A stretch of DNA of 64,000 bases from IMG/VR virus record IMGVR_UViG_3300043395_004689, positions 39,159 to 103,158 of that record, one strand, 5' to 3'. Of the stretch, positions 52,841 through 64,000 are shown in pieces. The notes below the pieces were generated by a model. That model was not told where the DNA came from. It was given only the letters and a program-made list of their open reading frames with translations, and made no database searches. Source of the stretch: a virus. Position 1 is the stretch's first letter. The number at the start of each line of letters is the position of its first letter. The position numbers were made by a program, and so were the translations under genes.

Positions 52841-53266
52841 ATGACAATGCATTTGGTTGGTCCGTATCTAACTACCACCAACTATAAAAAGCGCAAAACC
52901 AAGATGACTCGAGCTAAACAAGCCGAGTTAGATCTGCGCTGGCGCGAGCGTAACAAGTTCCTTAAAAGCATGGGCCTGCCTACAGACACCTTTGAGCAGT
53001 TCCTTGACTATGTGCATGGCAAGAAGGTCCGTGGACCTAAAACAGCCGTTGAACCGTTACAGCGGCCCATGCCTGCATATAGAGAAACAGAACGCATTCC
53101 AAGCTTGCCAATGAGCACCGAAGGCATGCAAAATGCCTGTGCCAAACGGGAGCCAAATCGCTATACCGGAACACTAATCAAAGGTATTGCTACCATGCAC
53201 AAGAGCAATGCGGTGCCAGTCATCAATGATGAGCAGGCACGAGACATCAGCCGTATGCGTCGATAA
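52841..53266 (+). CDS. Conserved phage hypothetical protein
   Basis: YTGTLIKGIATMHKSNAVPV...ISRMRR; promoter TTGACA(52793)-17-TATACT. Confidence 0.75.
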   Translation: MTMHLVGPYLTTTNYKKRKTKMTRAKQAELDLRWRERNKFLKSMGLPTDTFEQFLDYVHGKKVRGPKTAVEPLQRPMPAYRETERIPSLPMSTEGMQNACAKREPNRYTGTLIKGIATMHKSNAVPVINDEQARDISRMRR

Positions 53267-53628: not shown

Positions 53629-53801
53629 TGTTGCAAAAATGCCACAGTTTTTGTTGCAAAAATGCCACAATTTAGGGGCTCGCTAAGTCATTGATTTTAT
53701 TAGCATCAGCTAAGTCATTGATTTTTAAGGGTTTTTTAGCCCAAAAAAGTGCTTTTTTAGCCGAAAAAACGGTTGACCTCACGGTCCAGAAGCACTATAA
53801 T
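53629..53801 (+). promoter_or_regulatory. Early promoter module 3 (duplicated boxes)
   Basis: TGTTGCAAAAATGCCACA x2 (53629, 53652); TAAGTCATTGATT x2 (53684, 53711); TTGACC(53773)-17-TATAAT(53796). Confidence 0.8.
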
Positions 53802-53807
53802 AAGAGC

Positions 53808-54137
53808 ATGAACAGTAAGAAACCCACCACCCGCAAGCGCCGCTCAGATCGCAACCATGCGATTTATGAGCTCTATTGCGAAGTTACTGGCGAGAGCTAC
53901 ATTGGTATTACCGTGGTCAGCGGTACTGCTCTTAGCTCAGTTCGTGGCCGCTTTAACCGTCACCTGAGCCGCGCTCGTACAGAGAGCAAAGACTGGCTCT
54001 TGTGCGAGGCTCTGCGTAAATATGGTCGCGAAGGTTTTACTCCGTACCTGCTGGAAGTGGTGCGTGGTAAGACTGCCGCTCACGCTCGCGAGCGTGAGCT
54101 GACTGCTCAACTGAAGCCTGCTCTTAACACACTCTAA
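53808..54137 (+). CDS. GIY-YIG nuclease family protein, probably leaderless
   Basis: AIYEL...SYIG, R...H, E, LN. Confidence 0.8.
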   Translation: MNSKKPTTRKRRSDRNHAIYELYCEVTGESYIGITVVSGTALSSVRGRFNRHLSRARTESKDWLLCEALRKYGREGFTPYLLEVVRGKTAAHARERELTAQLKPALNTL

Positions 54138-54148
54138 GGAGAAGCAAC

Positions 54149-54436
54149 ATGGACCGTCAAAGTTACACCCTTAAGGTCTTCAAGAAGGACCGTCGTTGCC
54201 GCAGTGGCGAGCGCATGGTTGGTACCTATGAGTACACCAATGTCACGCCTCGTTGGATGCAGGAAGAAGTAGCCGATCTGCGCCATGCATTGTATCGTCC
54301 CCAGGATGGTTACCATCTTGAGTTTGACGAAACCTACAAGGTTGTTCGCAACCTTATGAGTGGTGCAGAAGTGGTCATTGCCCGAGATACTCCGCGGTGC
54401 TGTGATCCAAGCTCGGAACTCTACTGGAGTATGTAA
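54149..54436 (+). CDS. Hypothetical early protein
   Basis: AAGGAG SD; NLMSG...DTPRCCDPSSELYWSM. Confidence 0.7.
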   Translation: MDRQSYTLKVFKKDRRCRSGERMVGTYEYTNVTPRWMQEEVADLRHALYRPQDGYHLEFDETYKVVRNLMSGAEVVIARDTPRCCDPSSELYWSM

Positions 54437-54483
54437 CCTTCTGCTGGAGCAGAAGGATGTCACAACGAGCCAAGGAGGCTCAC

Positions 54484-54690
54484 ATGAGAAAACTACTGCA
54501 TACAGCGGTCGCGTTAGGATCGCTGGTTGTGCTCAGCGGTTGTGCAGTACACGGAACAGGCTACACCTATGTGGAACCCAGTCCTGTGTATGTGTCACCG
54601 CCTGTGGTAAGGTACCAGTACTATCGTCCTTACTATTATCATCGTCACTACACTCCGCACTACTATCGACCACGCTACTATTATCGCTGA
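54484..54690 (+). CDS. Small Tyr/Arg-rich lipoprotein
   Basis: AGGAGG SD, lipobox LSGC. Confidence 0.65.
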   Translation: MRKLLHTAVALGSLVVLSGCAVHGTGYTYVEPSPVYVSPPVVRYQYYRPYYYHRHYTPHYYRPRYYYR

Positions 54691-54710
54691 CGGTACAAAG
54701 GAGTCATAAC

Positions 54711-55331
54711 ATGAAGGAGTGGCCAGGCTGGCAGGTTAAACGAATGTTTGACCTAGTGCTGTCAGCCTTGTTGTTGCTTTTACTATCGCCCCTGATGTTG
54801 TTAATTGCTGTGGCTGTGGGGCTACAAGGCAGGCCCATTATATTTTCACACCAACGAGTAGGCCAGGGAGGACGACTGTTTCCTTGCTATAAATTTCGGT
54901 CCATGATTCCCAATGCCGAACAACATCTGCAAACTTTGCTGGCTACTTTCCCAGCCCTGCGGGCTCAATGGGAACAAGATCATAAACTCAAATATGATCC
55001 AAGAGTTACCAGGCTTGGTGCTTTTCTAAGACGAACCAGCTTGGACGAGTTACCTCAGTTGTTCAATGTGTTGCGAGGTGAAATGAGTTTGGTTGGACCA
55101 AGGCCTGTGGTGCAAGCAGAGCTGGAAAAATATGGGCCGGATCAAATCTACTACCTCATGGCCAAGCCCGGCATCACTGGCTTGTGGCAAGTGAGTGGAC
55201 GAAGCGAGCTTGACTATGCCAATCGAGTGGACCTAGACAAGTGGTATGTAAATCATTGGTCCTTGGGCTTTGATTTTTCTATCCTCTACAGGACTGCGGG
55301 CGTGGTGCTAGCAAGGCAGGGCGCCTACTAA
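54711..55331 (+). CDS. Monotopic phosphoglycosyl transferase (bacterial sugar transferase, WbaP/PglC-like)
   Basis: KRMFD, KFRSM, DPRVT, SLDELPQL.NVL.GEMSLVGPRP, PGITGLWQV. Confidence 0.93.
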   Translation: MKEWPGWQVKRMFDLVLSALLLLLLSPLMLLIAVAVGLQGRPIIFSHQRVGQGGRLFPCYKFRSMIPNAEQHLQTLLATFPALRAQWEQDHKLKYDPRVTRLGAFLRRTSLDELPQLFNVLRGEMSLVGPRPVVQAELEKYGPDQIYYLMAKPGITGLWQVSGRSELDYANRVDLDKWYVNHWSLGFDFSILYRTAGVVLARQGAY

Positions 55332-55343
55332 TAAAAGTGTTAC

Positions 55344-55468
55344 AAATCAATGACTTAGCGGGTGTACTAAGTCATTGATTTTTGTGGCAAAAAAACCACA
55401 AAAATCCTGAAAAAAAGTGGTTTTTAGACCAAAAAACGGTTGACCTTTGGTCCTAGCTAGTGCATAAT
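55344..55468 (+). promoter_or_regulatory. Early promoter module 4 (inverted IHF pair)
   Basis: AAATCAATGACTTAG(55344)/CTAAGTCATTGATTT(55367); TGT-N12-ACA 55383-55400; TTGACC(55440)-17-CATAAT(55463). Confidence 0.8.
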
Positions 55469-55499
55469 AGAAGCATAGTAAGCAAAAAGGAGCCACTAA

Positions 55500-56144
55500 A
55501 TGTTTGCATACAAGACCCGTAAGCCCGTGCAAGTTGATGCCGCCCAAAAGCCGGCTGTGGATGCACTGGCCGCTGTCGTTGACAAGCTGAGCCAAAGCGA
55601 TGCCGCTTTTGCCGGCTCCCTGATTGCCAATTTCAACCGCTGGGGAAAGCTCAGCGACAAGCAGATGCCCTGGGTTGATACCCTGACCCAGCGGGCCACT
55701 GCACCCAAGCCCGAACCCAAGGCCTATGTCAATGTTGACTTCAAGCCTATCCAGGACCTTTTTGACACCGCGGCTCGTCGACTCAAGCGAGTCAAAATCA
55801 AGACTCAAGATGCCACGGGTCAGGCTGTGGTTTTCAACCGTGCTGGCCCCAACAGCAAGTATGCGGGCCAGATTATGATCACTGATGGCCAGCCTTTTGG
55901 TCAGAACAAGTTCTTTGGTCGCATCGACACCACAGGCGAGTTCTTTGCAACCCGTGCTGCCACCCAGCAGGTGTGTGAAGCTGTCAAGGACTTTAGCGAT
56001 GATCCGGCCGGTGCCGCGGGTCGCTATGGTAGGCTCACTGGCGGTTGCAGTTTTTGCAATCATGGTCTTACCGATGACCGTAGCCTTGCAGTTGGTTATG
56101 GCCCGGTGTGTGCTCGTAACTTTGGCTTGAAGTGGGGTAACTGA
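55500..56144 (+). CDS. Early protein with C-terminal zinc ribbon (DUF6011-like)
   Basis: LSDKQ; CSFC...LTD..S...GYGPVCA. Confidence 0.75.
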   Translation: MFAYKTRKPVQVDAAQKPAVDALAAVVDKLSQSDAAFAGSLIANFNRWGKLSDKQMPWVDTLTQRATAPKPEPKAYVNVDFKPIQDLFDTAARRLKRVKIKTQDATGQAVVFNRAGPNSKYAGQIMITDGQPFGQNKFFGRIDTTGEFFATRAATQQVCEAVKDFSDDPAGAAGRYGRLTGGCSFCNHGLTDDRSLAVGYGPVCARNFGLKWGN

Positions 56145-56145
56145 A

Positions 56146-56289
56146 ATGCGTATCGTGTTCAACAAGATTCTCAACGGCTGGTACATTGTGCGTGGTCGGC
56201 ATGACACGCCCATCAGTGGCAGGTTTGAAACCAAGGAAGCCGCACTGGCACACCTTCGTCAACGCAACCCGCTTCACGCAGGAGTCTAA
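56146..56289 (+). CDS. 47-aa early protein (not in track)
   Basis: MRIVFNKILNGWYIVRG.H.TPISGRF. Confidence 0.6.
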   Translation: MRIVFNKILNGWYIVRGRHDTPISGRFETKEAALAHLRQRNPLHAGV

Positions 56290-56290
56290 C

Positions 56291-56557
56291 ATGAACCAGG
56301 AGTTACCGCGCATTGCATTAAAGCTCTGTGAGTACGACAAAGGTCGTCGTGTGCTAAAGTTAGCCAGTGAGTTCTTTGGTATGCCCAGTGAGTTCTTTAT
56401 AGTAAGCCATCACACTGGCAAGGAAGTTCGCTTTGTGCCTGTTGGTGAGCACGATGTACTGTTTGACTCGGACCAGTGGGACGGCGAACAGCAGATTTAT
56501 CGTCCCGTAGGCAATGTGCCTGGCGTGGATCACATGGTTATCTATCATCAGTGGTGA
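56291..56557 (+). CDS. Hypothetical early protein
   Basis: AGGAG SD; DQWDGE. Confidence 0.65.
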   Translation: MNQELPRIALKLCEYDKGRRVLKLASEFFGMPSEFFIVSHHTGKEVRFVPVGEHDVLFDSDQWDGEQQIYRPVGNVPGVDHMVIYHQW

Positions 56558-56562
56558 TTAAT

Positions 56563-57105
56563 ATGCTTAAAAAATTAATTGTTACTGCTGTCGTTGGTCT
56601 CAGTATCACTTCCATAGTGCATGTTGGGACTCCTTATATCGCGCTATACCAAGCAAAGTCAACTATTGACTCTGGCGACGAAGCATCTATAAAAATGATG
56701 CTTAAAGAGCATGTGGACTTCAATGAAGTTCGTTCAGATATTAAGAGCATTTTAACCGAAGCTTCAGCTATTATCTTGAATGATCTTGACAAGGACTTAA
56801 CAGGCAATCCTTTTAAAGGATTTGCAAGAGGAATAGCAACCTTAATGATTCCTGCTTTTGTTGAAAATTTACTCAATGAGGTTACCCCCGATCGTATAGC
56901 TACTATGATTGTCAAAAGAGATCAAAATAAAATTACAAACTGTAAAGTAGAGCTAATAGGTTTTGGTAAGGCGCAATATAATTGCTTTGATAATTCTGGA
57001 AAACAGCAGGTTTCATTATTGGCCCAATCCATTGGTTTTACCTGGAAGGTTACTGGTATATCTGTCACTAATAAAGAAGAATTTTTTAAGAGTCTTAAGA
57101 AATGA
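56563..57105 (+). CDS. DUF2939-like exported protein, AT-rich
   Basis: N-terminal TM, PYIAL, VDF.EVR..IK, GFTWKVTGI. Confidence 0.65.
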   Translation: MLKKLIVTAVVGLSITSIVHVGTPYIALYQAKSTIDSGDEASIKMMLKEHVDFNEVRSDIKSILTEASAIILNDLDKDLTGNPFKGFARGIATLMIPAFVENLLNEVTPDRIATMIVKRDQNKITNCKVELIGFGKAQYNCFDNSGKQQVSLLAQSIGFTWKVTGISVTNKEEFFKSLKK

Positions 57106-57365
57106 ACAGCCAAGAAATTCAAACCGCAGTTTACGAATGGGCACAGGCTCAGAACTTCTCTGCACCCTACGGTGTGCTCACTGGCGATCATGTCAACAAG
57201 AAAGGCACCAAGTACCTGAGCGTGACTTTTGGTCGTGCTCGCATTCTAGACGCCACTGTGGAAATTTATAACCGCAATTTTATAATTTTGAGAACCAGCC
57301 GGGAAGTTACCGGGCAGGTGTTTCGTTCTGTTGAGGACCTGCAAACAGCATTGGACCTGCTTTAA
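57102..57365 (+). CDS. Hypothetical protein
   Basis: Coupled ORF. Confidence 0.6.
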   Translation: MNSQEIQTAVYEWAQAQNFSAPYGVLTGDHVNKKGTKYLSVTFGRARILDATVEIYNRNFIILRTSREVTGQVFRSVEDLQTALDLL

Positions 57366-57428
57366 GACTTGACCACTTGCCCAAAATTGTGTAGAATATC
57401 AACTGTAAACTAGAAATTGGAGTAAACT

Positions 57429-57713
57429 ATGAGCCACGGAACTTGCCCTGTTTGTAATGGTACTGGTCGCCGCCCTGCGGGCAATGACCAATACAAGCAT
57501 GTCTATGCTGGGTATGATAAGGAAACTGATACCTTGGCTTGCAATAACTGTGGTGGGCAAACCATGTACGGTCGACCCACGGGTCGTGTTCCGCTTCGGC
57601 CCGATGGCACACCTTGCAAGCATGAATACACCAGTGCTACAGTGGGTCGTTGTTTGACTCGCTATACTTGTAAACATTGTGGCAGTAGCCACGAAATTGA
57701 TTCGGGAGATTGA
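57429..57713 (+). CDS. Zinc-finger protein
   Basis: CPVCNGTG, CNNCGG, CKHC; promoter TTGACC(57369)-17-TAGAAT. Confidence 0.7.
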   Translation: MSHGTCPVCNGTGRRPAGNDQYKHVYAGYDKETDTLACNNCGGQTMYGRPTGRVPLRPDGTPCKHEYTSATVGRCLTRYTCKHCGSSHEIDSGD

Positions 57714-57714
57714 C

Positions 57715-58005
57715 ATGACTACTGTGGTTGATCCAGCAATGGATAAAATATTTAAAGGCACATTCAACATGCCTAGTCCAGTGGCAGTGACCACTATTGG
57801 CAAGCTGACCATCAGTACCGTTGACCTCAATGATGCGGCTTTGGGTCAGGCTGCGTATGAAACCTGTGTTTTCTATCCCAATGGCAACAGCTCAGTGGTT
57901 GGCCGTTGGGTGTCAGAGTCTGAGGCTCTGCAAAATCATGCCAAGATTGTTGAGCATGAAGTTGGCCACATTGTGGCTCGTAAAAAGATCCGCATGATTG
58001 AATAA
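57715..58005 (+). CDS. Hypothetical protein
   Basis: GGAG SD; ISTV...YETCVF. Confidence 0.6.
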   Translation: MTTVVDPAMDKIFKGTFNMPSPVAVTTIGKLTISTVDLNDAALGQAAYETCVFYPNGNSSVVGRWVSESEALQNHAKIVEHEVGHIVARKKIRMIE

Positions 58006-58029: not shown

Positions 58030-58057
58030 AGCCTGCTCAATGAGCAGGCTTTTTTTT
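58030..58057 (+). terminator. Rho-independent terminator
   Basis: AGCCTGCTC-aat-GAGCAGGCT followed by T tract. Confidence 0.85.
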
Positions 58058-58213
58058 GACTTTGTTTGACTATCAAGCTACAATGTAGAAACATTAACAA
58101 ATTTTGTAATTTTTGCGTTTTTCGTAGATTTATAATACTGATGTTTATCTACTACTTCCTAAAGGGTTGGCCTTACAGATTTAGTTTTAAGTACTACACT
58201 TGAAAGGCCTCTT

Positions 58214-58906
58214 ATGTTGTATTTTTCAGATTCTCCAGGTTCGCCCATGGTTATAAATTTTAAACCTGATTGGAAAGGGAAGATTCGCCCAGAGTATTTT
58301 GACAAAATACACGAAGAAAATTTTTGTAGTCTGCGAGTGCTTGGAGATCTAAGCAACCTTGGCACAGCTTTATATCTTGCACCTGACCTTATAACTTTCA
58401 ATGCAGACATCTTGCTAACCAACAAATGTTCTCCCAGTGAACTCATGACAACCTTAGATCTATTGTCCAGGCTCATTGGATTAAATAAAAAATATACTGT
58501 TGCCCTTGGCGTTAATGCCAACACACCAAGTAGTCTAATCAAAGAATGCAAGCGAGCTGGAATGCAGGGAATAGTACCCAGCAATGACTGGAATGTTGAT
58601 GAAACATTAACAGCAACCAAAAAGCTATTGAGTGGCGAATCCTACTGGCCTAATCACATCATTGAGAAGTTACCGGGCGCAGTGATTCGTAGTCGGCGAG
58701 CAAGCGAAGAAATACAGCTAACCCCAAGGCAGCAAGAAATCTTAGATTTGATATGCCGGCGTGGTGCTAGCAATAAAAAGATTGCTCAGATCTTACACAT
58801 CAGCGAAAGCACAGTTAAGGTTCACGTGAGTGCAATTTTAAAATCCTACAGAGTAAGAAACCGAACGCAGTTAGCTCTGTCAGGTATACAGACCATGAGT
58901 GTTTAA
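58214..58906 (+). CDS. LuxR/NarL-type HTH regulator with degenerate receiver domain
   Basis: LTPRQQEIL...G.SNKKIA..L.ISESTVKVHVSAIL....VRNRTQ; promoter TTGACT(58056)-17-TACAAT(58079). Confidence 0.88.
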   Translation: MLYFSDSPGSPMVINFKPDWKGKIRPEYFDKIHEENFCSLRVLGDLSNLGTALYLAPDLITFNADILLTNKCSPSELMTTLDLLSRLIGLNKKYTVALGVNANTPSSLIKECKRAGMQGIVPSNDWNVDETLTATKKLLSGESYWPNHIIEKLPGAVIRSRRASEEIQLTPRQQEILDLICRRGASNKKIAQILHISESTVKVHVSAILKSYRVRNRTQLALSGIQTMSV

Positions 58907-58927
58907 ATCCCCGTCAAGGGGATTTTT
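58905..58927 (+). terminator. Rho-independent terminator
   Basis: AAATCCCC-gtcaa-GGGGATTT followed by Ts. Confidence 0.75.
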
Positions 58928-59066
58928 ATGAGTTGGTTTTCTAATACTGGAGTTAATATCATACTTTAGCTAGATCAAGGTCAGCTGTTTTTATTCTAAG
59001 TAATTGTGTTACCGCAAATAAATTGATTTTATTGTAGTGACATTTTTACTTAAAGGAAAAATTAAC

Positions 59067-59630
59067 ATGGCTGACATGACAAGTCTAACAACTGATCCTT
59101 TCTTTGCACTAACTGGACAAGTTAACGGTGTAAGAGAAAAAGTTTCAGATAGTATTTTTGAAAACTACAAACTTCAAGTTGCACAAACCAATGATATCAA
59201 CAACCGTGCAATGCAAGTTGCACTACACGACGCCAGCGAACTAGCTGCTATCAAGCAAGAAATTGCCAACAGTACGCTACAAGCTATGCTGGCTGCTGCT
59301 CGCACAGATGCACAGATTGGCGCCACAAGTGCTGCTCAACAGCGTCTGGTAATGGAGCAAGCTGAAGCTACTCGTCGTCTAATTGTTGACCTGAACACTC
59401 AGAACCTCAACACCGCACTGATCAATACAAACACAGCATTAAATGGCCTAAATGGTCAGTACGCTGGTTTAGGTCTTGCTTATGGTGGTGCCGTTGCTGC
59501 TTACCAAAGTGCAAACACTAACAGCGCATTGAGTGCGTTGAATAGTGCTATTGCTAGCCAAAGCTCTAACGTCATTGGCGCTGGCGCTGTAGGTGGCACA
59601 CAAACTGCTACACCAACAACAGTTGTTTAA
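59067..59630 (+). CDS. Ala/Gln/Asn-rich coiled-coil protein with C-terminal GGTQTATPT tag
   Basis: AAGGA SD; 187 aa. Confidence 0.75.
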   Translation: MADMTSLTTDPFFALTGQVNGVREKVSDSIFENYKLQVAQTNDINNRAMQVALHDASELAAIKQEIANSTLQAMLAAARTDAQIGATSAAQQRLVMEQAEATRRLIVDLNTQNLNTALINTNTALNGLNGQYAGLGLAYGGAVAAYQSANTNSALSALNSAIASQSSNVIGAGAVGGTQTATPTTVV

Positions 59631-59650
59631 GCAACTAAAGGAGGACCGCT

Positions 59651-59827
59651 ATGTATAGAACATGGGGTTACAGTTATCCGCGTGGCTATCTAGGCGCCGG
59701 GCTTGGCTATCCATATGGAGCATACGCTGTTCCATACTATGGCTGGGGTTACCCAGGCTATGGCTATCCAGGACCATTCTGGGGTTACCCAGGCTGGGGC
59801 TACTACGGATCAGGCGGCCTGTTATAA
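59651..59827 (+). CDS. 58-aa Gly/Tyr/Pro/Trp-rich peptide (not in track)
   Basis: AGGAGG SD; MYRTWGYSYPRGYLGAGLGYPYGAYAVPYYGWGYPGYGYPGPFWGYPGWGYYGSGGLL. Confidence 0.75.
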   Translation: MYRTWGYSYPRGYLGAGLGYPYGAYAVPYYGWGYPGYGYPGPFWGYPGWGYYGSGGLL

Positions 59828-59842
59828 AATAGGCTGCTGAAT

Positions 59843-59876
59843 GATGGGTTAGCTCACAAGGCTGACCCATCTTTTT
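59843..59876 (+). terminator. Internal terminator-like hairpin
   Basis: GATGGGTTAGC-7-GCTGACCCATC followed by T5. Confidence 0.7.
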
Positions 59877-59890
59877 AAAAGGAGTGAAAA

Positions 59891-60088
59891 ATGTTTACAG
59901 GTTATTATTATCCATTTTACAGAGGTTTTGTTAACCCATACTATGCATGGGGAGCTCCGTACTATGGATTCAACAACAATTATGGCAACTCAATTATAGG
60001 AAGTGCCATTGCCAATCAAAACATGAATGTGATTGGCCCCGGAGCCATTGGTGGTACACAAACTGCCACACCAACAGTTATTTGGTAA
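59891..60088 (+). CDS. Tyr-rich peptide with C-terminal GGTQTATPT tag
   Basis: AAGGAG SD; shares ~25 aa with the 59067 protein. Confidence 0.75.
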   Translation: MFTGYYYPFYRGFVNPYYAWGAPYYGFNNNYGNSIIGSAIANQNMNVIGPGAIGGTQTATPTVIW

Positions 60089-60096
60089 AGAACAAT

Positions 60097-60789
60097 ATGT
60101 ACAGCAAAGTTACTCATAACATTGTCGAGGAACATTTTCAAGAACAGGCCCGACTAGGCATGGCATTGCCTGGAACAGTACTTCCTGGAACAGACCTGCC
60201 AATGGTGGTATTAAACGAAGCTACCTTGGTATTCAGAATGGATTCTAGAAGTCTATGGGCAAAGTATGCTTGGAGTCTGTTGAACTATTCAATTAGCATG
60301 AATTCCAATCTACCTGGCACGCCGCAAGTTGAGTCTCGCCTTTTAAAGGCAGGCACGGCAATTGGAGACTTTTTAGTTCCATATTATGGCATCACGGCCG
60401 GCAACCTGGTAGGAGATAAACTTGCGGCGATTGCCAAGGTAGGCACACAAGTAGTTGATGCAGTAAAAGATCGTCGCAACTTAGAAAAATTTGACAAGAT
60501 CTGGGAAGAGCTTATTGAAGATCTTGTTGATTTTTTAAATCAACAGAATCCTACTCAGTGGCCAAAGACCTTACTAAATGAGCTGTTTACCAACCTAGTT
60601 CAAACCTGGACCAAAGCTATAGTTTCTAGATTTGATGAAAATTGGAATGAAAACGAAGAAGCTATCAACAATTTAGAAAAATTAGTTGTTACTGGTATTG
60701 CCAATCATGTTAACAAAGGCTTTAGCAGTATAGCCGATGTTGTTAGCAGAGGTGTTATTGCTCAATATCCAAGTTTATTTGTAAAGTAA
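60097..60789 (+). CDS. Helical protein resembling an uncharacterised Bacillota family
   Basis: R.LW, RLL, PYYG, FL...NP..W, AD..S.G.I.QYP pattern recalled from Bacillus/Clostridium proteins. Confidence 0.55.
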   Translation: MYSKVTHNIVEEHFQEQARLGMALPGTVLPGTDLPMVVLNEATLVFRMDSRSLWAKYAWSLLNYSISMNSNLPGTPQVESRLLKAGTAIGDFLVPYYGITAGNLVGDKLAAIAKVGTQVVDAVKDRRNLEKFDKIWEELIEDLVDFLNQQNPTQWPKTLLNELFTNLVQTWTKAIVSRFDENWNENEEAINNLEKLVVTGIANHVNKGFSSIADVVSRGVIAQYPSLFVK

Positions 60790-60790
60790 T

Positions 60791-61024
60791 ATGTCAGTGA
60801 TCAGGTTATCAGATAACAAGAATCAAGAATTTAGTAATCTTGAAACGCATGTGATCTTGGCCGAACAACGCCGGTCTCTCATTGAGGACAGAATTAAAAA
60901 GCTTGAAGAAAAATTTTCTGTCTTAGAACAAGACGAGCGACTGAGTAGACGCTTGCTGATAGGAAGCTTGATCACAATCTTGGGCGGAATACTCACTACA
61001 ATTTTGACTATTTTACTTCGTTAA
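60791..61024 (+). CDS. Coiled coil plus C-terminal TM (XhlA/holin-like architecture)
   Basis: LETHV...RIKKLEEK, hydrophobic C-terminus. Confidence 0.6.
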   Translation: MSVIRLSDNKNQEFSNLETHVILAEQRRSLIEDRIKKLEEKFSVLEQDERLSRRLLIGSLITILGGILTTILTILLR

Positions 61025-61033
61025 GGATACATC

Positions 61034-61507
61034 ATGAGCGACGTTGATCAGAAAAAATTAATGGAAATATTGAGACTTGCTAGATCAAGCCTCAATGAGG
61101 AACTTATGAAGCGACAACACGAAGCCTACCAAGCATGGCAAGTGTCTGCTTTAAATTCATGGCAATCCAATGGCATGTTGTTGCCCCCATACAGCATCAA
61201 GTTTGCGTATCCCACTGAGCAAGACATAGTAAAAAAAGCATTGGAAATTTACAACACACTGACTCCGCCAGCTGCTCCGGGTGCTGCGTCTTCTCCGACA
61301 ACAGCATCGGAGCCAGCCAACATAATACCACCAGGGGATGCAGTTGACAACGAGAAGCCACTGGTCGATGCAGTTGCAACACCAGCTGAAGAAACAAAAA
61401 TTGAAGATACCACAGCACAAGATAGTATCCAACCAGAATCTACAGAAACAACCGAAAACAAATTTAAAAGCCTACTCACCAAGTGGGGTGGCCGAGGAAC
61501 ATTCTAA
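61034..61507 (+). CDS. Hypothetical protein
   Basis: EIL.LAR...YPTEQDIVKKA..IY; disordered tail. Confidence 0.65.
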   Translation: MSDVDQKKLMEILRLARSSLNEELMKRQHEAYQAWQVSALNSWQSNGMLLPPYSIKFAYPTEQDIVKKALEIYNTLTPPAAPGAASSPTTASEPANIIPPGDAVDNEKPLVDAVATPAEETKIEDTTAQDSIQPESTETTENKFKSLLTKWGGRGTF

Positions 61508-61515
61508 GGAACACA

Positions 61516-61980
61516 ATGTTTAATAATCTAGGCTTTTATAGTCGTCGACCTGTGAGAAGAGTAGTACCTGTACGCAGAGCTTATCCTGTGGTTGCACAAT
61601 ATGGTGGTGCTGGCGCAGATGTGTTTTACAACAGCAGCGGAGTAGGGCCACCGGGACCTCCCGGGCCACCTGGACCACCAGGACCGGCCGGAGCACCAAG
61701 TCCTGTGCCAACCACAGAAGTAACAACTCCAACCTTCACTCCCACTGCCTCGGATTACTTTTTGTGCGTAGATCATACCGCACCTGTGATCATTACATTG
61801 CCTGTTGGTATACTGGGTACAGTTTACATTGTTAAAGACTGCTCAGGTAATGCACAGACATTTCCTATCATTGTGGCAGGCAGCGGAGGTCAAACAGTTG
61901 ACGGAAGCTTTGCCACTATTAACACCAACTATGGAAGTCTAACTTTCATATTCAATGGCACAGAATGGAGCATTGTGTAA
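61516..61980 (+). CDS. Short collagen (GPP) fibre protein with C-terminal beta domain
   Basis: (GPP)4-GPA-GAP; TLP.G..G.VYIVKD...TVDG...FNG.EW. Confidence 0.75.
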   Translation: MFNNLGFYSRRPVRRVVPVRRAYPVVAQYGGAGADVFYNSSGVGPPGPPGPPGPPGPAGAPSPVPTTEVTTPTFTPTASDYFLCVDHTAPVIITLPVGILGTVYIVKDCSGNAQTFPIIVAGSGGQTVDGSFATINTNYGSLTFIFNGTEWSIV

Positions 61981-62546
61981 TGGGCTACAAAGAACCACTG
62001 GCATCAATTGCTGACTTTGGTGTGATGAAAGTTGGCTCAGGTCTATCAGTAACTGACGGAACTGTGTCTGCTGTTCCAGTGGCATTGCTTGATCAAGGCT
62101 ATTTTTATAACACCGCCACACAGACCAATCCAGTTGCCAGCGGTGTTAATTTGGTAGCATATGATAGCACAGCAGTTAACGTTGGAATAACTGTGGTTGG
62201 AGGGTTGCCGGGTACACAACTTCAAGTATCACGAACAGCAAACTACAACCTACAGTTTACTGTTCAACTAGAAAAGACCACGGGTCCAAAAACTGATGTC
62301 AACATTTGGATTCGTCGTAACGGTGCATTATATCCTGACACCAATACCACCCTGGCCTTGACTGGCAGTAATACTGTTCTCTTAGCAGGGTGGAGTTACA
62401 TTTTGGCTCTCAACGCAGGAGACTATGTTGAGATAGCCTGGGAAAGTCCAGATACTTCTGTTACTCTAACAGCAGTACCGGCAACAGCAGGGCCTCCAGC
62501 AAGGCCAGCATCACCTAGTGCAAGATGCACCATGGTACAATTATAA
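61980..62546 (+). CDS. Short fibre protein with C1q/BclA-CTD-like domain
   Basis: FGVMKVGSGL; YNLQF.VQ, IWIRRNG, LNAGDYVEI. Confidence 0.7.
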   Translation: MGYKEPLASIADFGVMKVGSGLSVTDGTVSAVPVALLDQGYFYNTATQTNPVASGVNLVAYDSTAVNVGITVVGGLPGTQLQVSRTANYNLQFTVQLEKTTGPKTDVNIWIRRNGALYPDTNTTLALTGSNTVLLAGWSYILALNAGDYVEIAWESPDTSVTLTAVPATAGPPARPASPSARCTMVQL

Positions 62547-62557
62547 GGAAGACAATC

Positions 62558-62962
62558 GTGTCATATACAAATAATCCAACCTCGATACTAGCAGGAGCAG
62601 GTATTACAGTGGCGCCAACAACAGGTACAGGTGCCAACACAATCACAATCAGCGCCAGTGGCATTAATCCTCTGGCTGTTAGAGTTGCAGTGGCTACTCC
62701 TGTTGCAGTTAGTGGAACCACCGATGAAGTCATCAGTGTTCAAGTACCCGGCCCAGTTGCTGTGGCAGTGAACTTGCCAGCAGGCGTACTAGGAAAAGTG
62801 TTCACTATCAAAGATGGATTGGGTTTGGCTGCGCCAGCAACACCTATTACTATTACACCCACAGGTGCTGACACCATTGACGGTGCTGCCACTGCCACTA
62901 TCAATGCTCCATTTGGTTCATTGACCATGGTGTTTGATGGCACACAATGGATTTTAATCTAA
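62558..62962 (+). CDS. Short fibre paralog
   Basis: GTG start after AAGGA; LPAG..GKVFTIKD...TIDG...FDG.QW. Confidence 0.7.
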   Translation: MSYTNNPTSILAGAGITVAPTTGTGANTITISASGINPLAVRVAVATPVAVSGTTDEVISVQVPGPVAVAVNLPAGVLGKVFTIKDGLGLAAPATPITITPTGADTIDGAATATINAPFGSLTMVFDGTQWILI

Positions 62963-62971
62963 TAGAATAAT

Positions 62972-63445
62972 ATGGCTTACAATAGACCACCACAAGTAAC
63001 ATTGGCTGGCGTAGGACTTAAACAAAATCCTCCTCCATCTATTATTCAGCCTCCGGGTATTGTTCCGGTAACGCTGGATGCTGAAATTGCAACTACCAAC
63101 AGCCTTGGTGTAATTCAGGTTGGCAGTGGCTTGTCTATCACACCCAGTGGTGTATTATCAGCAACAGGCAGCAGCGGAAGTAATTTTGTAAATGTTACTC
63201 TCACAGGTGTTAGCTATCTAATCACTGCTGATGATTCATATGTTGGTGCTACTAGTAAAAACATTACGCTAACTTTGCCCACTGGTCTATTGGGTAGAGT
63301 GTACTATATTAAAAACCAAAGTGATGGAAACATCAAAGTACAAGGCTCGGGAGGTGAAACCATAGATGGTAGTGCTTTCCAAACATTGGGTTCCAACAGC
63401 GGCTTTATGGTCGTGTTTGATGGCGCCAGATGGAATATTTTATAA
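62972..63445 (+). CDS. Short fibre paralog
   Basis: LGVIQVGSGL; TLPTG..GRVYYIKN...TIDG...FDG.RW. Confidence 0.7.
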   Translation: MAYNRPPQVTLAGVGLKQNPPPSIIQPPGIVPVTLDAEIATTNSLGVIQVGSGLSITPSGVLSATGSSGSNFVNVTLTGVSYLITADDSYVGATSKNITLTLPTGLLGRVYYIKNQSDGNIKVQGSGGETIDGSAFQTLGSNSGFMVVFDGARWNIL

Positions 63446-63454
63446 GGAAACGAA

Positions 63455-64000
63455 ATGTCATATCTATTCCCCGAAGGTTCTACCACTGAGCGCGGTGTAG
63501 TAGAAATTGGATCTAACATTGATGTCTTAGATGGCATCATATCTATACCGCAAAGTGTTGCACCAACTGCCGCAATCTTTTTTGATGAGCTTGATGCAAC
63601 CAGTGCGCTAAGACTAGACGGCAAGTCTGTTGTTACAGAAATTACACCCACAGCCGGTAGCGGTATCAGCATAACCAACTTGGTTGGAACTGGCCCTGAC
63701 TCTAGCTTTACTGTAAACAACACCGGTGTTCTGAGTCTGGTTGCTGGTGCCGGTATTACTCTATCAGCCAGCACTGGCATTATCACTGTCAGTGCCACTG
63801 GCGCTGATTTTTTAAACACCATTGGCGTCACCAACAATTATACTGCAACAGCCACAGACGAGTATATTGGAGTTAACAGTACAAGCTTGGTCACTGTTAC
63901 TTTACCAGCAGGTGTCCAAGGGCGACAGTATATCATCAAAGAAGAAAGAGGCACAGGCACAGGAAGAGTAAATGTGCAAGGCACTGGCAATGAGACCATT
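63455..64000 (+). CDS. Short fibre paralog (runs off window)
   Basis: AAGGA SD; MSYLFP...TDEYIGV...TLPAG..GRQYIIKE. Confidence 0.7.
   Translation, partial: MSYLFPEGSTTERGVVEIGSNIDVLDGIISIPQSVAPTAAIFFDELDATSALRLDGKSVVTEITPTAGSGISITNLVGTGPDSSFTVNNTGVLSLVAGAGITLSASTGIITVSATGADFLNTIGVTNNYTATATDEYIGVNSTSLVTVTLPAGVQGRQYIIKEERGTGTGRVNVQGTGNETI

Follow-up and report, generated by a model that had tools for sequence, protein, structure and literature searches.

A conserved and previously undescribed gene cassette of freshwater jumbo phages, with its own LuxR-type regulator, that may build a fibrous appendage on the virus particle

Short fibres and small structural proteins are brought together in several described systems. 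In phages T4 and CBA120 the XD-type beta domains of gp10 and TSP4, respectively, dock further trimeric fibres, giving rise to branched complexes (PMC8825819). In the exosporium nap of the Bacillus cereus group, the collagen-like BclA stands on a TNF-like trimer, BxpB/ExsFA (Protein Data Bank (PDB) entries 1WCK, 8D02 and 7R1M). Phages can bear tail fibres with C1q/TNF-type knobs and, in the case of T4, whiskers made of fibritin (wac). Helical rods together with very small Gly/Tyr-rich proteins are the composition of tough, cross-linked materials elsewhere; keratin filaments lie in high-Gly/Tyr keratin-associated proteins, and the spore coat contains the Tyr-rich CotC and CotU. Here we describe a gene cassette that starts at position 58,214 of a 64,000-nucleotide (nt) stretch of viral DNA (hereafter, the window), corresponding to the last 64 kb of the 103-kb IMG/VR record IMGVR_UViG_3300043395_004689, and that can be compared with each of these systems.

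The cassette is headed by gene A, coding for a LuxR/NarL-type regulator, which is followed by 11 tightly packed genes (B to L), all on the + strand and each with its own ribosome-binding site. It is real, conserved, previously undescribed and has its own regulator; new here are a private promoter that occurs twice, a conserved internal terminator and the co-varying tails of proteins B and D. We give about even chances to the interpretation that the cassette, which is known from its genes alone, is an accessory structural block building an extra fibrous appendage ("hair" or nap) on the virus particle. The original prediction had listed, behind the LuxR gene, a coiled-coil protein, Gly/Tyr peptides, a helical protein, a membrane protein and five fibre proteins; all of them are present on the + strand, gene G comes in addition, and the block runs past the end of the record. 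The window would therefore hold the first three quarters of the cassette, the missing end being reconstructed from relatives.

The claim that these genes form one co-conserved structural cassette was borne out by synteny. The retrieval of related loci from IMG/VR, 40 by B and 4 by E, left 38 distinct loci after removal of duplicates, and all 38 keep the order A-B(B)-C-D-E(E)-F-G-H-(I)-J-K-(L)-E', in which E' is a paralogue of E that closes the fibre block. Gene A lies directly upstream of B in 29 of 36 loci and, among the 26 loci with at least 7 kb of downstream sequence, fibres were found in 25 and Tyr-rich open reading frames (ORFs) in 22. The number of fibres per locus ranges from one to six. 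B itself is represented by 775 clusters in a set of 5.8 billion proteins, on contigs of up to 333 kb, and a B profile retrieved 107 proteins from 1.84 billion representatives.

Beyond the close B family, we found about 70 proteins of 200-450 residues (B2), whose last ~130 residues align to B from about residue 50 to the very C-terminus, with the tail nearly invariant. The B2 genes occur in 70 loci (56 distinct), within a reduced cassette made of the rod gene, an H-type collagen fibre, an L-type fibre, a protease, often a LuxR gene (22/51) and two extremely Tyr-rich small ORFs, the second of which ends in a segment resembling the rod tail. The Tyr-rich peptides of this second clade reach 57% Tyr plus Trp in windows of 30 amino acids (aa). 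Taken together, the two sets amount to roughly ninety uncultured giant phages. Complete genomes of 258-400 kb are among the carriers of the reduced cassette, and in locus L049 the reduced cassette also includes a coiled-coil, membrane-anchored protein. Since two sets of loci show the same gene association, the combination of rod, tailed Tyr-rich peptides, fibres, protease and regulator is old and kept under selection.

Regulator A carries a C-terminal GerE/LuxR helix-turn-helix (Pfam PF00196, 54.6 bits versus a cut-off of 23.5, residues 168-221), preceded by a degenerate, receiver-like part. In NCBIfam, its alignments to ErdR, NarL and MadR begin as early as residues 65-99, scoring 52-66 bits versus cut-offs of 250-390; no match to Response_reg was found in Pfam, nor to Autoind_bind, and the SdiA alignment spans the helix-turn-helix only (Pfam and NCBIfam). 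A composite element precedes both A and B. The element upstream of A, PA, consists of the repeat pair TAATACT-N10-TACTACT (58133-58156), a 31-nt spacer and a TAAGTA box (58188-58193), while PB, upstream of B, consists of TAATACT-N10-TCATACT (58942-58965), a spacer of the same length and a TAAGTA box (58997-59002) followed by a hairpin (59006-59043). The window contains only two such pairs in its 64 kb, versus 0.2 per 64 kb expected from shuffled sequence. The composite element was found before both genes in the window and in about 20 relatives: the A-B spacers of the relatives contain a TAnTACT pair separated by 10/11 nt, with a TAA[G/C]TA box at 32 nt in nearly every case (the box starts 32 nt after the last base of the repeat, that is, after a 31-nt spacer). 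This offset is kept upstream of B in 13/13 distinct relatives, and the PA-type layout with the same offset is found upstream of A in at least six. In the second set, the rod gene B2 comes after related ACTGAAG and TAAGTA elements. A hairpin follows the PB box directly in every locus, although its sequence differs, and hairpins like the one directly 3' of A follow the regulator gene in many relatives. The TAAGTA box was also considered as a T4-type late promoter and rejected. With TATAAATA absent from the whole window and the octamer TnTAA[G/C]TA present in it only eight times, two of them in the cassette, the box does not serve this phage as a general late promoter.

A further signal lies between C and D. 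Here, too, the original prediction held: the intrinsic terminator that it had placed inside the operon is found in the window, and hairpin plus T run are present in 25/25 distinct C-D spacers of relatives, with energies of -15.7 to -26.3 kcal/mol and compensatory changes. With a terminator so conserved, B and C would be expected in excess, as had been proposed. In the regulation that we envisage, the sigma-70-like promoter ahead of PA could supply a little A, and A would bind the repeats, amplify its own expression and fire the promoter of B. An mRNA stabilized by its 5' hairpin would then give much B and C, and read-through would give lower amounts of the products from D to the protease. In two metatranscriptomes from different studies, short contigs mapped to B, C, E, F/G, I, K and L, and A was without any; 5/8 listed pieces from one of the two runs fell within 59026-59773, and one contig from an RNA library starts at 59026, inside the PB leader, which is a weak indication. 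These contigs hint at expression and are compatible with this model, giving no ranking of levels and with DNA carry-over possible; the uncovered parts of the metatranscriptome runs are uninformative.

Protein B is the best conserved of the cassette, its relatives being 35-88% identical with a near-invariant N-terminal block. AlphaFold2, run on the alignment of B, modelled one continuous helix over residues 11-165 (~23 nm), with a predicted local distance difference test (pLDDT) score above 90 over residues 30-120, followed by a disordered, Gly/Thr-rich tail of 20 aa with an invariant Gln. No family was found for B, nor for C, D, E and G, in Pfam, PHROG, NCBIfam or PDB searches, and PDB sequences, searched with B, E, K and the fibre domain as single sequences and as profiles, yielded chance matches only. 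R-body, phasin, curli and flagellin-like identities were rejected for B, as no family model in Pfam or NCBIfam matched. An architectural parallel is offered by T4 fibritin and other phage coiled-coil rods: the prediction for B is likewise a long helical rod, with a short C-terminal element conserved for assembly and with expression alongside fibre proteins. On the other hand, B shows no sequence relation to fibritin and no foldon, its neighbours are much less conserved than B itself, and its tail recurs in a Tyr-rich peptide.

This peptide is D. Its N-terminal half is rich in Tyr and Pro, and homology to the end of B extends over its C-terminal ~35 aa. Between B and D, tail identity is 0.59 within the same locus and 0.46 across loci; in a permutation test that does not correct for phylogeny, 0/2000 permutations reached the observed value (p < 0.0005). 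Two tail types, 'VIGAGAVGGTQ' and 'VNTGTMTGTTQ', switch together in the two proteins, and one Gln is invariant in the tails of both. The co-variation suggests that the two proteins bind the same partner, assemble together or are processed by the protease at a site that both possess. Many relatives (L007, L027-L040 and L045-L047, order BB) have two tandem, diverged copies of B; each copy is tailed, the tail types differ, and only one of them resembles the tail of D in the same locus. Peptide C, encoded between B and D, has a conserved RGYLGAGIGYPY core and its gene a strong AGGAGG ribosome-binding site. Rods encoded next to small Gly/Tyr proteins invite the analogy with keratin and its associated proteins, and with CotC/CotU; the cassette, however, shows no homology to these proteins and includes no cross-linking enzyme, and any material made by it is hypothetical.

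The fibre genes point in a more familiar direction. H, J, K and L have in common a C-terminal beta domain of ~85 residues, and I to L an N-terminal M-[SA]-Y-x-x-P motif. The shared domain matches phrog_20556 ("baseplate protein") in 16/39 members (best 2.2e-07), other members match tail-fibre PHROGs, and phrog_967 and phrog_972 are matched as well. Pfam signals were marginal (T4_gp9_10_N in 2/39 members at 0.024, Phage_depo_C in 11/39 at 0.0015 or weaker), the domain profile matched no PDB sequence, and the matches in a protein atlas were unnamed viral clusters, apart from one weak T4 gp9/10 lead. By these profile matches, the fibre domains probably belong to phage baseplate and tail-fibre families. 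The arrangement is like that of T4 gp10-gp11-gp12 and CBA120 TSP1-4 in that several short, putatively trimeric proteins are encoded side by side, with matches to PHROG baseplate and tail-fibre-connector families; a small beta domain of this kind serves in known phages as docking platform or spacer, and the N-terminal motif of I to L could, by analogy, be a docking plug as in XD-type complexes. Unlike the T4 and CBA120 proteins, the fibres of the cassette are only 134-205 aa long and lack enzymatic tailspike bodies, and nothing like the rod protein, the Tyr-rich peptides, the protease or the private regulator accompanies them in those two phages.

One collagen fibre and one C1q/BclA-like fibre had been predicted, and both were recovered. 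H consists of an Arg-rich N-terminus, six uninterrupted G-X-Y triplets and the shared beta domain; homologues have longer runs, and 5/39 fibre-domain members match Pfam Collagen (best 7.2e-05). In the second set, the collagen fibre of L049 (L049:8789-9394) has an N-terminal coiled coil and Cys clusters flanking the G-X-Y run (CPDECPPGPP ... GECSCKCK), a disulfide-knot arrangement as in extracellular collagens, while the H of the window is without these cysteines. I has the N-terminal motif in the form M-x-Y-K-x-P and a knob on a stalk of ~40 residues. The AlphaFold2 model of the knob (pLDDT 85) is a TNF/C1q jelly roll that Foldseek aligned to 8D02, 7R1M, 9H3D and 1WCK with E values from 7e-08 to 2e-06; BxpB, ExsFA, BclA and C1q are among its structural matches. 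As in the exosporium nap, therefore, a jelly roll of this fold is encoded beside a collagen-stalked fibre, and proteolysis may accompany assembly. Unlike the nap, the cassette offers neither an exosporium-targeting N-terminus nor an ExsY/CotY-type basal-layer protein, and the carriers are giant phages (one with psbA) rather than spore formers, which leaves a likeness at the level of fold only. The knob matched solved cyanophage tail-fibre and spike knobs as well as exosporium proteins, the closest structures being the short tail fibre of cyanophage A-1(L) (8KE9), the tail of cyanophage A4 (9K09) and the central spike knob of phi812 (9EUL). In the viral model library BFVD its matches, with E values down to 1e-21, were long fibres of uncultured Caudovirales (collagen, Stf and S74 types), at whose tips the knob sits, as it usually does in long phage tail fibres. 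The N-terminal strand motif of I (G-x-x-K-V-G-x-G-L) is also fibre-like. The differences from C1q/TNF-knobbed tail fibres are that I is encoded in a regulated cassette instead of a tail module and that its stalk is so short.

Among the remaining products, E gave chance-level PDB and Pfam matches only; its alignment to the spore-coat kinase YutH (18 bits versus a cut-off of 215) was taken as chance and this candidate was rejected. F, with 17 homologues of 78-83 aa, matched families weakly (Pfam XhlA, 15.5 bits versus 34.7; phrog_937, 3.6e-4), and its likeness to XhlA probably concerns topology only. G has a conserved N-terminal part of ~75 aa and continues as a variable, acidic, Pro/Thr-rich linker. 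In relatives, L is followed, past the end of the window's record, by E' and by a papain-family protease, which matched Pfam PF00112 (Peptidase_C1) in five loci with 42-58 bits versus a cut-off of 20.7 (E 1e-10 to 1e-15) and PDB 3OIS at 1.7e-35, with the catalytic Cys/His/Asn motifs GSC, GGHA and NS(F/W)G aligned; its matches to Peptidase_C39_2 were weak. The protease was detected by tblastn in 23 loci, and it lies within 8 kb of the cassette in 19 of the 26 loci with sufficient downstream sequence. It was also found apart from rod and fibres in Burkholderia phage FLC9 (L119:8899-9690, gp163; 322 kb), the one cultured jumbo phage with this protease, as a lone + strand gene amid - strand genes, and in the uncultured 595-kb LR756511.1 (L120); neither of the two has B or the fibre domain. 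The features of the cassette and of its upstream border are collected in Table 1; the starts of H, I and J were corrected using homologues and ribosome-binding sites.

Table 1. Genes and regulatory elements of the cassette, with positions in the window.
Feature	Position	Strand	Basis
Terminator of preceding unit	58030-58050 plus T run	+	consensus scan; putative function
Sigma-70-like promoter TTGACT-17-TACAAT ahead of A	58056-58084	+	consensus scan; putative function
Private promoter PA	58133..58193	+	repeat pair and TAAGTA box; box 21 nt before the A start codon
A, LuxR/NarL-type regulator, 230 aa	58214..58906	+	Pfam GerE 8.5e-15
Short hairpin (CCCC-loop-GGGG) then TTTTT, directly 3' of A	58908..58929	+	read from sequence
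Private promoter PB and leader	58942..59043	+	repeat pair, TAAGTA box, 5'-proximal hairpin
B, 187-aa rod protein	59067..59630	+	AlphaFold2 and alignment of relatives
C, 58-aa Gly/Tyr/Pro/Trp peptide	59651..59827	+	sequence; 21 distinct homologues
Internal intrinsic terminator between C and D	59843..59871	+	12-bp stem (6 G-C pairs), T run
D, 65-aa Tyr-rich peptide	59891..60088	+	alignments of B and D tails
E, 230-aa protein of no known family, reads as helical (from sequence)	60097..60789	+	
F, 77 aa, N-terminal coiled coil and C-terminal transmembrane segment	60791..61024	+	sequence
G, 157 aa, linker-like	61034..61507	+	no family match
H, short fibre with collagen stretch	61516..61980	+	alignment, PHROG, Pfam Collagen
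I, short fibre with TNF/C1q-like jelly-roll knob	61980..62546	+	AlphaFold2, Foldseek
J, 134-aa short fibre, GTG start, shared C-terminal beta domain	62558..62962	+	
K, 157-aa short fibre, shared C-terminal beta domain	62972..63445	+	
L, short fibre, ~205 aa in relatives, cut by record end	63455..64000	+	

As for the source of the window, the record is classed as a provirus with a CheckV completeness of 31%. Proteins identical or near-identical to those studied lead to contigs of 327-333 kb, one of which is named 'uncultured Caudovirales phage', and the exact B protein of the window is also on a 327-kb contig. DNA near-identical to the window was found in freshwater metagenomes from many studies. 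Nearly every gene of the window is on the + strand, and those that can be recognised include a ClpA/Lon-like protease, an endonuclease and, at 38-45 kb, tail-fibre genes. On the basis of the near-identical proteins on large contigs, the freshwater matches and these phage genes, the window comes from a freshwater jumbo phage, of which it is a fragment.

Upstream of the cassette, the neighbour met most often (21 loci) is a GIY-YIG homing-endonuclease-like gene (window 53691-54137, Pfam 9.3e-05), which may help to move or fix the block. Another upstream neighbour (52841-53266) is far too widespread to gauge how often the cassette is absent. In the window, the conserved upstream neighbours are separated from the cassette by ~3.8 kb of genes (54360-58005), among them one for a bacterial-type sugar transferase (54360-55331, local G+C 0.50), one for a phrog_4046 protein and one for a Cys-rich protein of 94 aa. 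Since none of the related loci has the genes of 54.4-58.2 kb in this place, the cassette lying there directly 3' of the homologues of 53691-54436, the segment looks like a recent insertion.

Outside metagenomic viral sequence, B was found in 1 of 185,579 species' genomes, on a 10-kb contig of a metagenome-assembled genome (CAZXGO010000088.1, L048, labelled Chitinophagales, order A-E'-B), which argues that B is a phage gene. L048 is probably a phage contig binned with a bacterium, the host hint being faint at best, and a host among the Bacteroidota is made less likely by the strong AGGAGG ribosome-binding sites of the cassette. Searches of 50,697 GenBank phage records at the DNA and protein level, with the region, B, J and B2, found none of them, and literature searches retrieved no description of such a cassette. 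Among the carriers of the reduced cassette, the phage of L052 (L052:14749-15843) is probably a jumbo cyanophage, given a psbA gene (phrog_182, 5.7e-186) located 4 kb from the cassette and flanked by homing-endonuclease genes. In L020 (IMGVR_UViG_3300047391_000033, L020:3213-3437) an in-frame fusion joins the middle of C to the final 29 codons of the protease gene; the region from D through most of the protease is gone, and A, A, B and half of C remain. This suggests that the deleted part is dispensable, unless the fusion is an assembly artefact.

If the cassette does build an appendage, its assembly could be envisaged as follows. B would oligomerise into rods of the modelled ~23 nm, and the common tail would dock B and D on one partner or, alternatively, be the site of the protease. 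The Gly/Tyr peptides would provide a sticky or cross-linkable matrix, and the short trimeric fibres would attach through their N-terminal M-[SA]-Y-x-x-P motif, so that short knobbed fibres would stand on a base of rods and matrix. No signal peptide was recognised in the cassette products (N-termini judged by eye), which places assembly in the cytoplasm and leaves lysis as the only way to the outside; the virion would be the obvious carrier. The Cys-bracketed collagen of the second set, an arrangement that by analogy suits extracellular life, and the tail-fibre-type parts together make a virion appendage the most economical explanation. A more ambitious version, which we regard as unlikely, sees a switchable kit for a viral biomaterial, in which rods and Tyr/Gly peptides joined by their tails would form a tough, sticky layer bearing short receptor-binding fibres, the papain-type protease would perhaps trim or ligate the tail at the invariant Gln, and the activator would choose between 'hairy' and 'bald' particles.

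Several observations weigh against an appendage on the particle. The cassette is separate from the recognisable tail-fibre block of the window, as the original prediction had stated, and in L052 (complete, 258 kb, with terminal repeats) the reduced cassette is a + strand island amid - strand genes, with exonuclease, PhoH, thymidylate synthase and psbA as neighbours. To our knowledge, an autoregulated activator of their own is unusual for virion genes. The membrane-anchored F has no obvious place in a virion, and no cultured phage with B, B2 or J is known from the GenBank phage records. Moreover, a complete 357-kb genome that carries a 68%-identical neighbour gene is without B and, together with the in-frame deletion in L020, this indicates that the product of the cassette is probably dispensable.

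The private regulator and the position away from virion genes would suit an intracellular assembly, namely a scaffold, filament network or Tyr/Gly condensate that organises late infection and is tethered to the membrane by F. The coiled coil and C-terminal anchor of F agree with it, as does the similar protein that closes the reduced cassette, and Gly/Tyr low-complexity peptides resemble condensate-forming sequences. The presence of at least five fibre proteins with receptor-binding-type knobs and baseplate-type domains, the Cys clusters around the collagen of the second clade, the sub-threshold family match of F and its detection in only part of the loci make us consider this quite unlikely. 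The original prediction itself, a coat, matrix or occlusion-like body similar to spore coat and exosporium, made conditionally around virions or the infected cell, has in its favour the extreme composition of the Gly/Tyr- and Tyr-rich peptides, the collagen fibre and the knob of BxpB/ExsFA/BclA fold, the protease (spore coats employ processing proteases), and a switch-like regulator of an apparently dispensable block. What stands of it is the likeness in composition and fold; homology does not, as Pfam, NCBIfam and PDB profile searches gave no significant relation to coat or exosporium families, the best hits of the I profile among PDB sequences having E values of 0.02 (ExsFA) and 0.12. Collagen and knob are on separate proteins (H and I), no laccase-, peroxidase- or transglutaminase-family gene was noted among the module genes, and tail fibres and baseplates of phages commonly contain both this knob and the shared beta domain, so that the spore-coat interpretation is one of resemblance. 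A coat around the infected cell, in particular, is unlikely, because without export signals nothing would be laid around the cell from outside. We therefore hold a spore-coat-like body to be still somewhat less probable than an intracellular assembly.

At the opposite end, the genes could be ordinary, essential baseplate and tail-fibre genes of a T4-like jumbo phage, lying next to the regulator by accident. The PHROG matches and the weak T4 gp9/10 leads in the atlas and Pfam speak for it. The conservation of regulator and repeat-box promoter with the block in two clades argues against an incidental neighbourhood, as B, C, D, E and G without counterpart in cultured phages, the deletion variant, the complete genome without the cassette and the variable fibre number argue against essential tail genes; we consider this explanation improbable, more so than a spore-coat-like body. 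The lowest probability of all goes to a unit for lysis, egress or attack on the host envelope, in which the protease, together with the XhlA-like F, would degrade proteins of the host or peptides of its peptidoglycan, or to C and D as bacteriocin-like peptides, or ribosomally synthesised and post-translationally modified ones, matured by a C39-like protease under LuxR control. Here belong the weak XhlA/haemolysin match of F, a protease homologue of 27% identity annotated as 'endolysin' in Alicyclobacillus phage MMB025, the weak Peptidase_C39_2 matches and the small peptides encoded alongside a LuxR regulator. All these matches are below curated cut-offs or are annotation only, the module genes were not noted to include any of a holin, endolysin, transporter or modification-enzyme family, the protease also occurs alone in FLC9 and in the 595-kb phage, and the rod, the shared tails and up to six fibres would be left unexplained.

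If the appendage is indeed on the particle, the cassette would provide optional adhesins or host-range fibres under a phage-encoded switch, a new way to vary the viral surface, in abundant freshwater (and cyanophage-like) giant phages. No relative has been described for at least four of the protein families that it defines, namely the rod B/B2, two kinds of Tyr-rich peptides, E and G. Regulator, 24-bp repeat operator and TAAGTA promoter make up a compact regulatory unit, and the pair of rod and Gly/Tyr peptide may be of interest as a self-assembling material.

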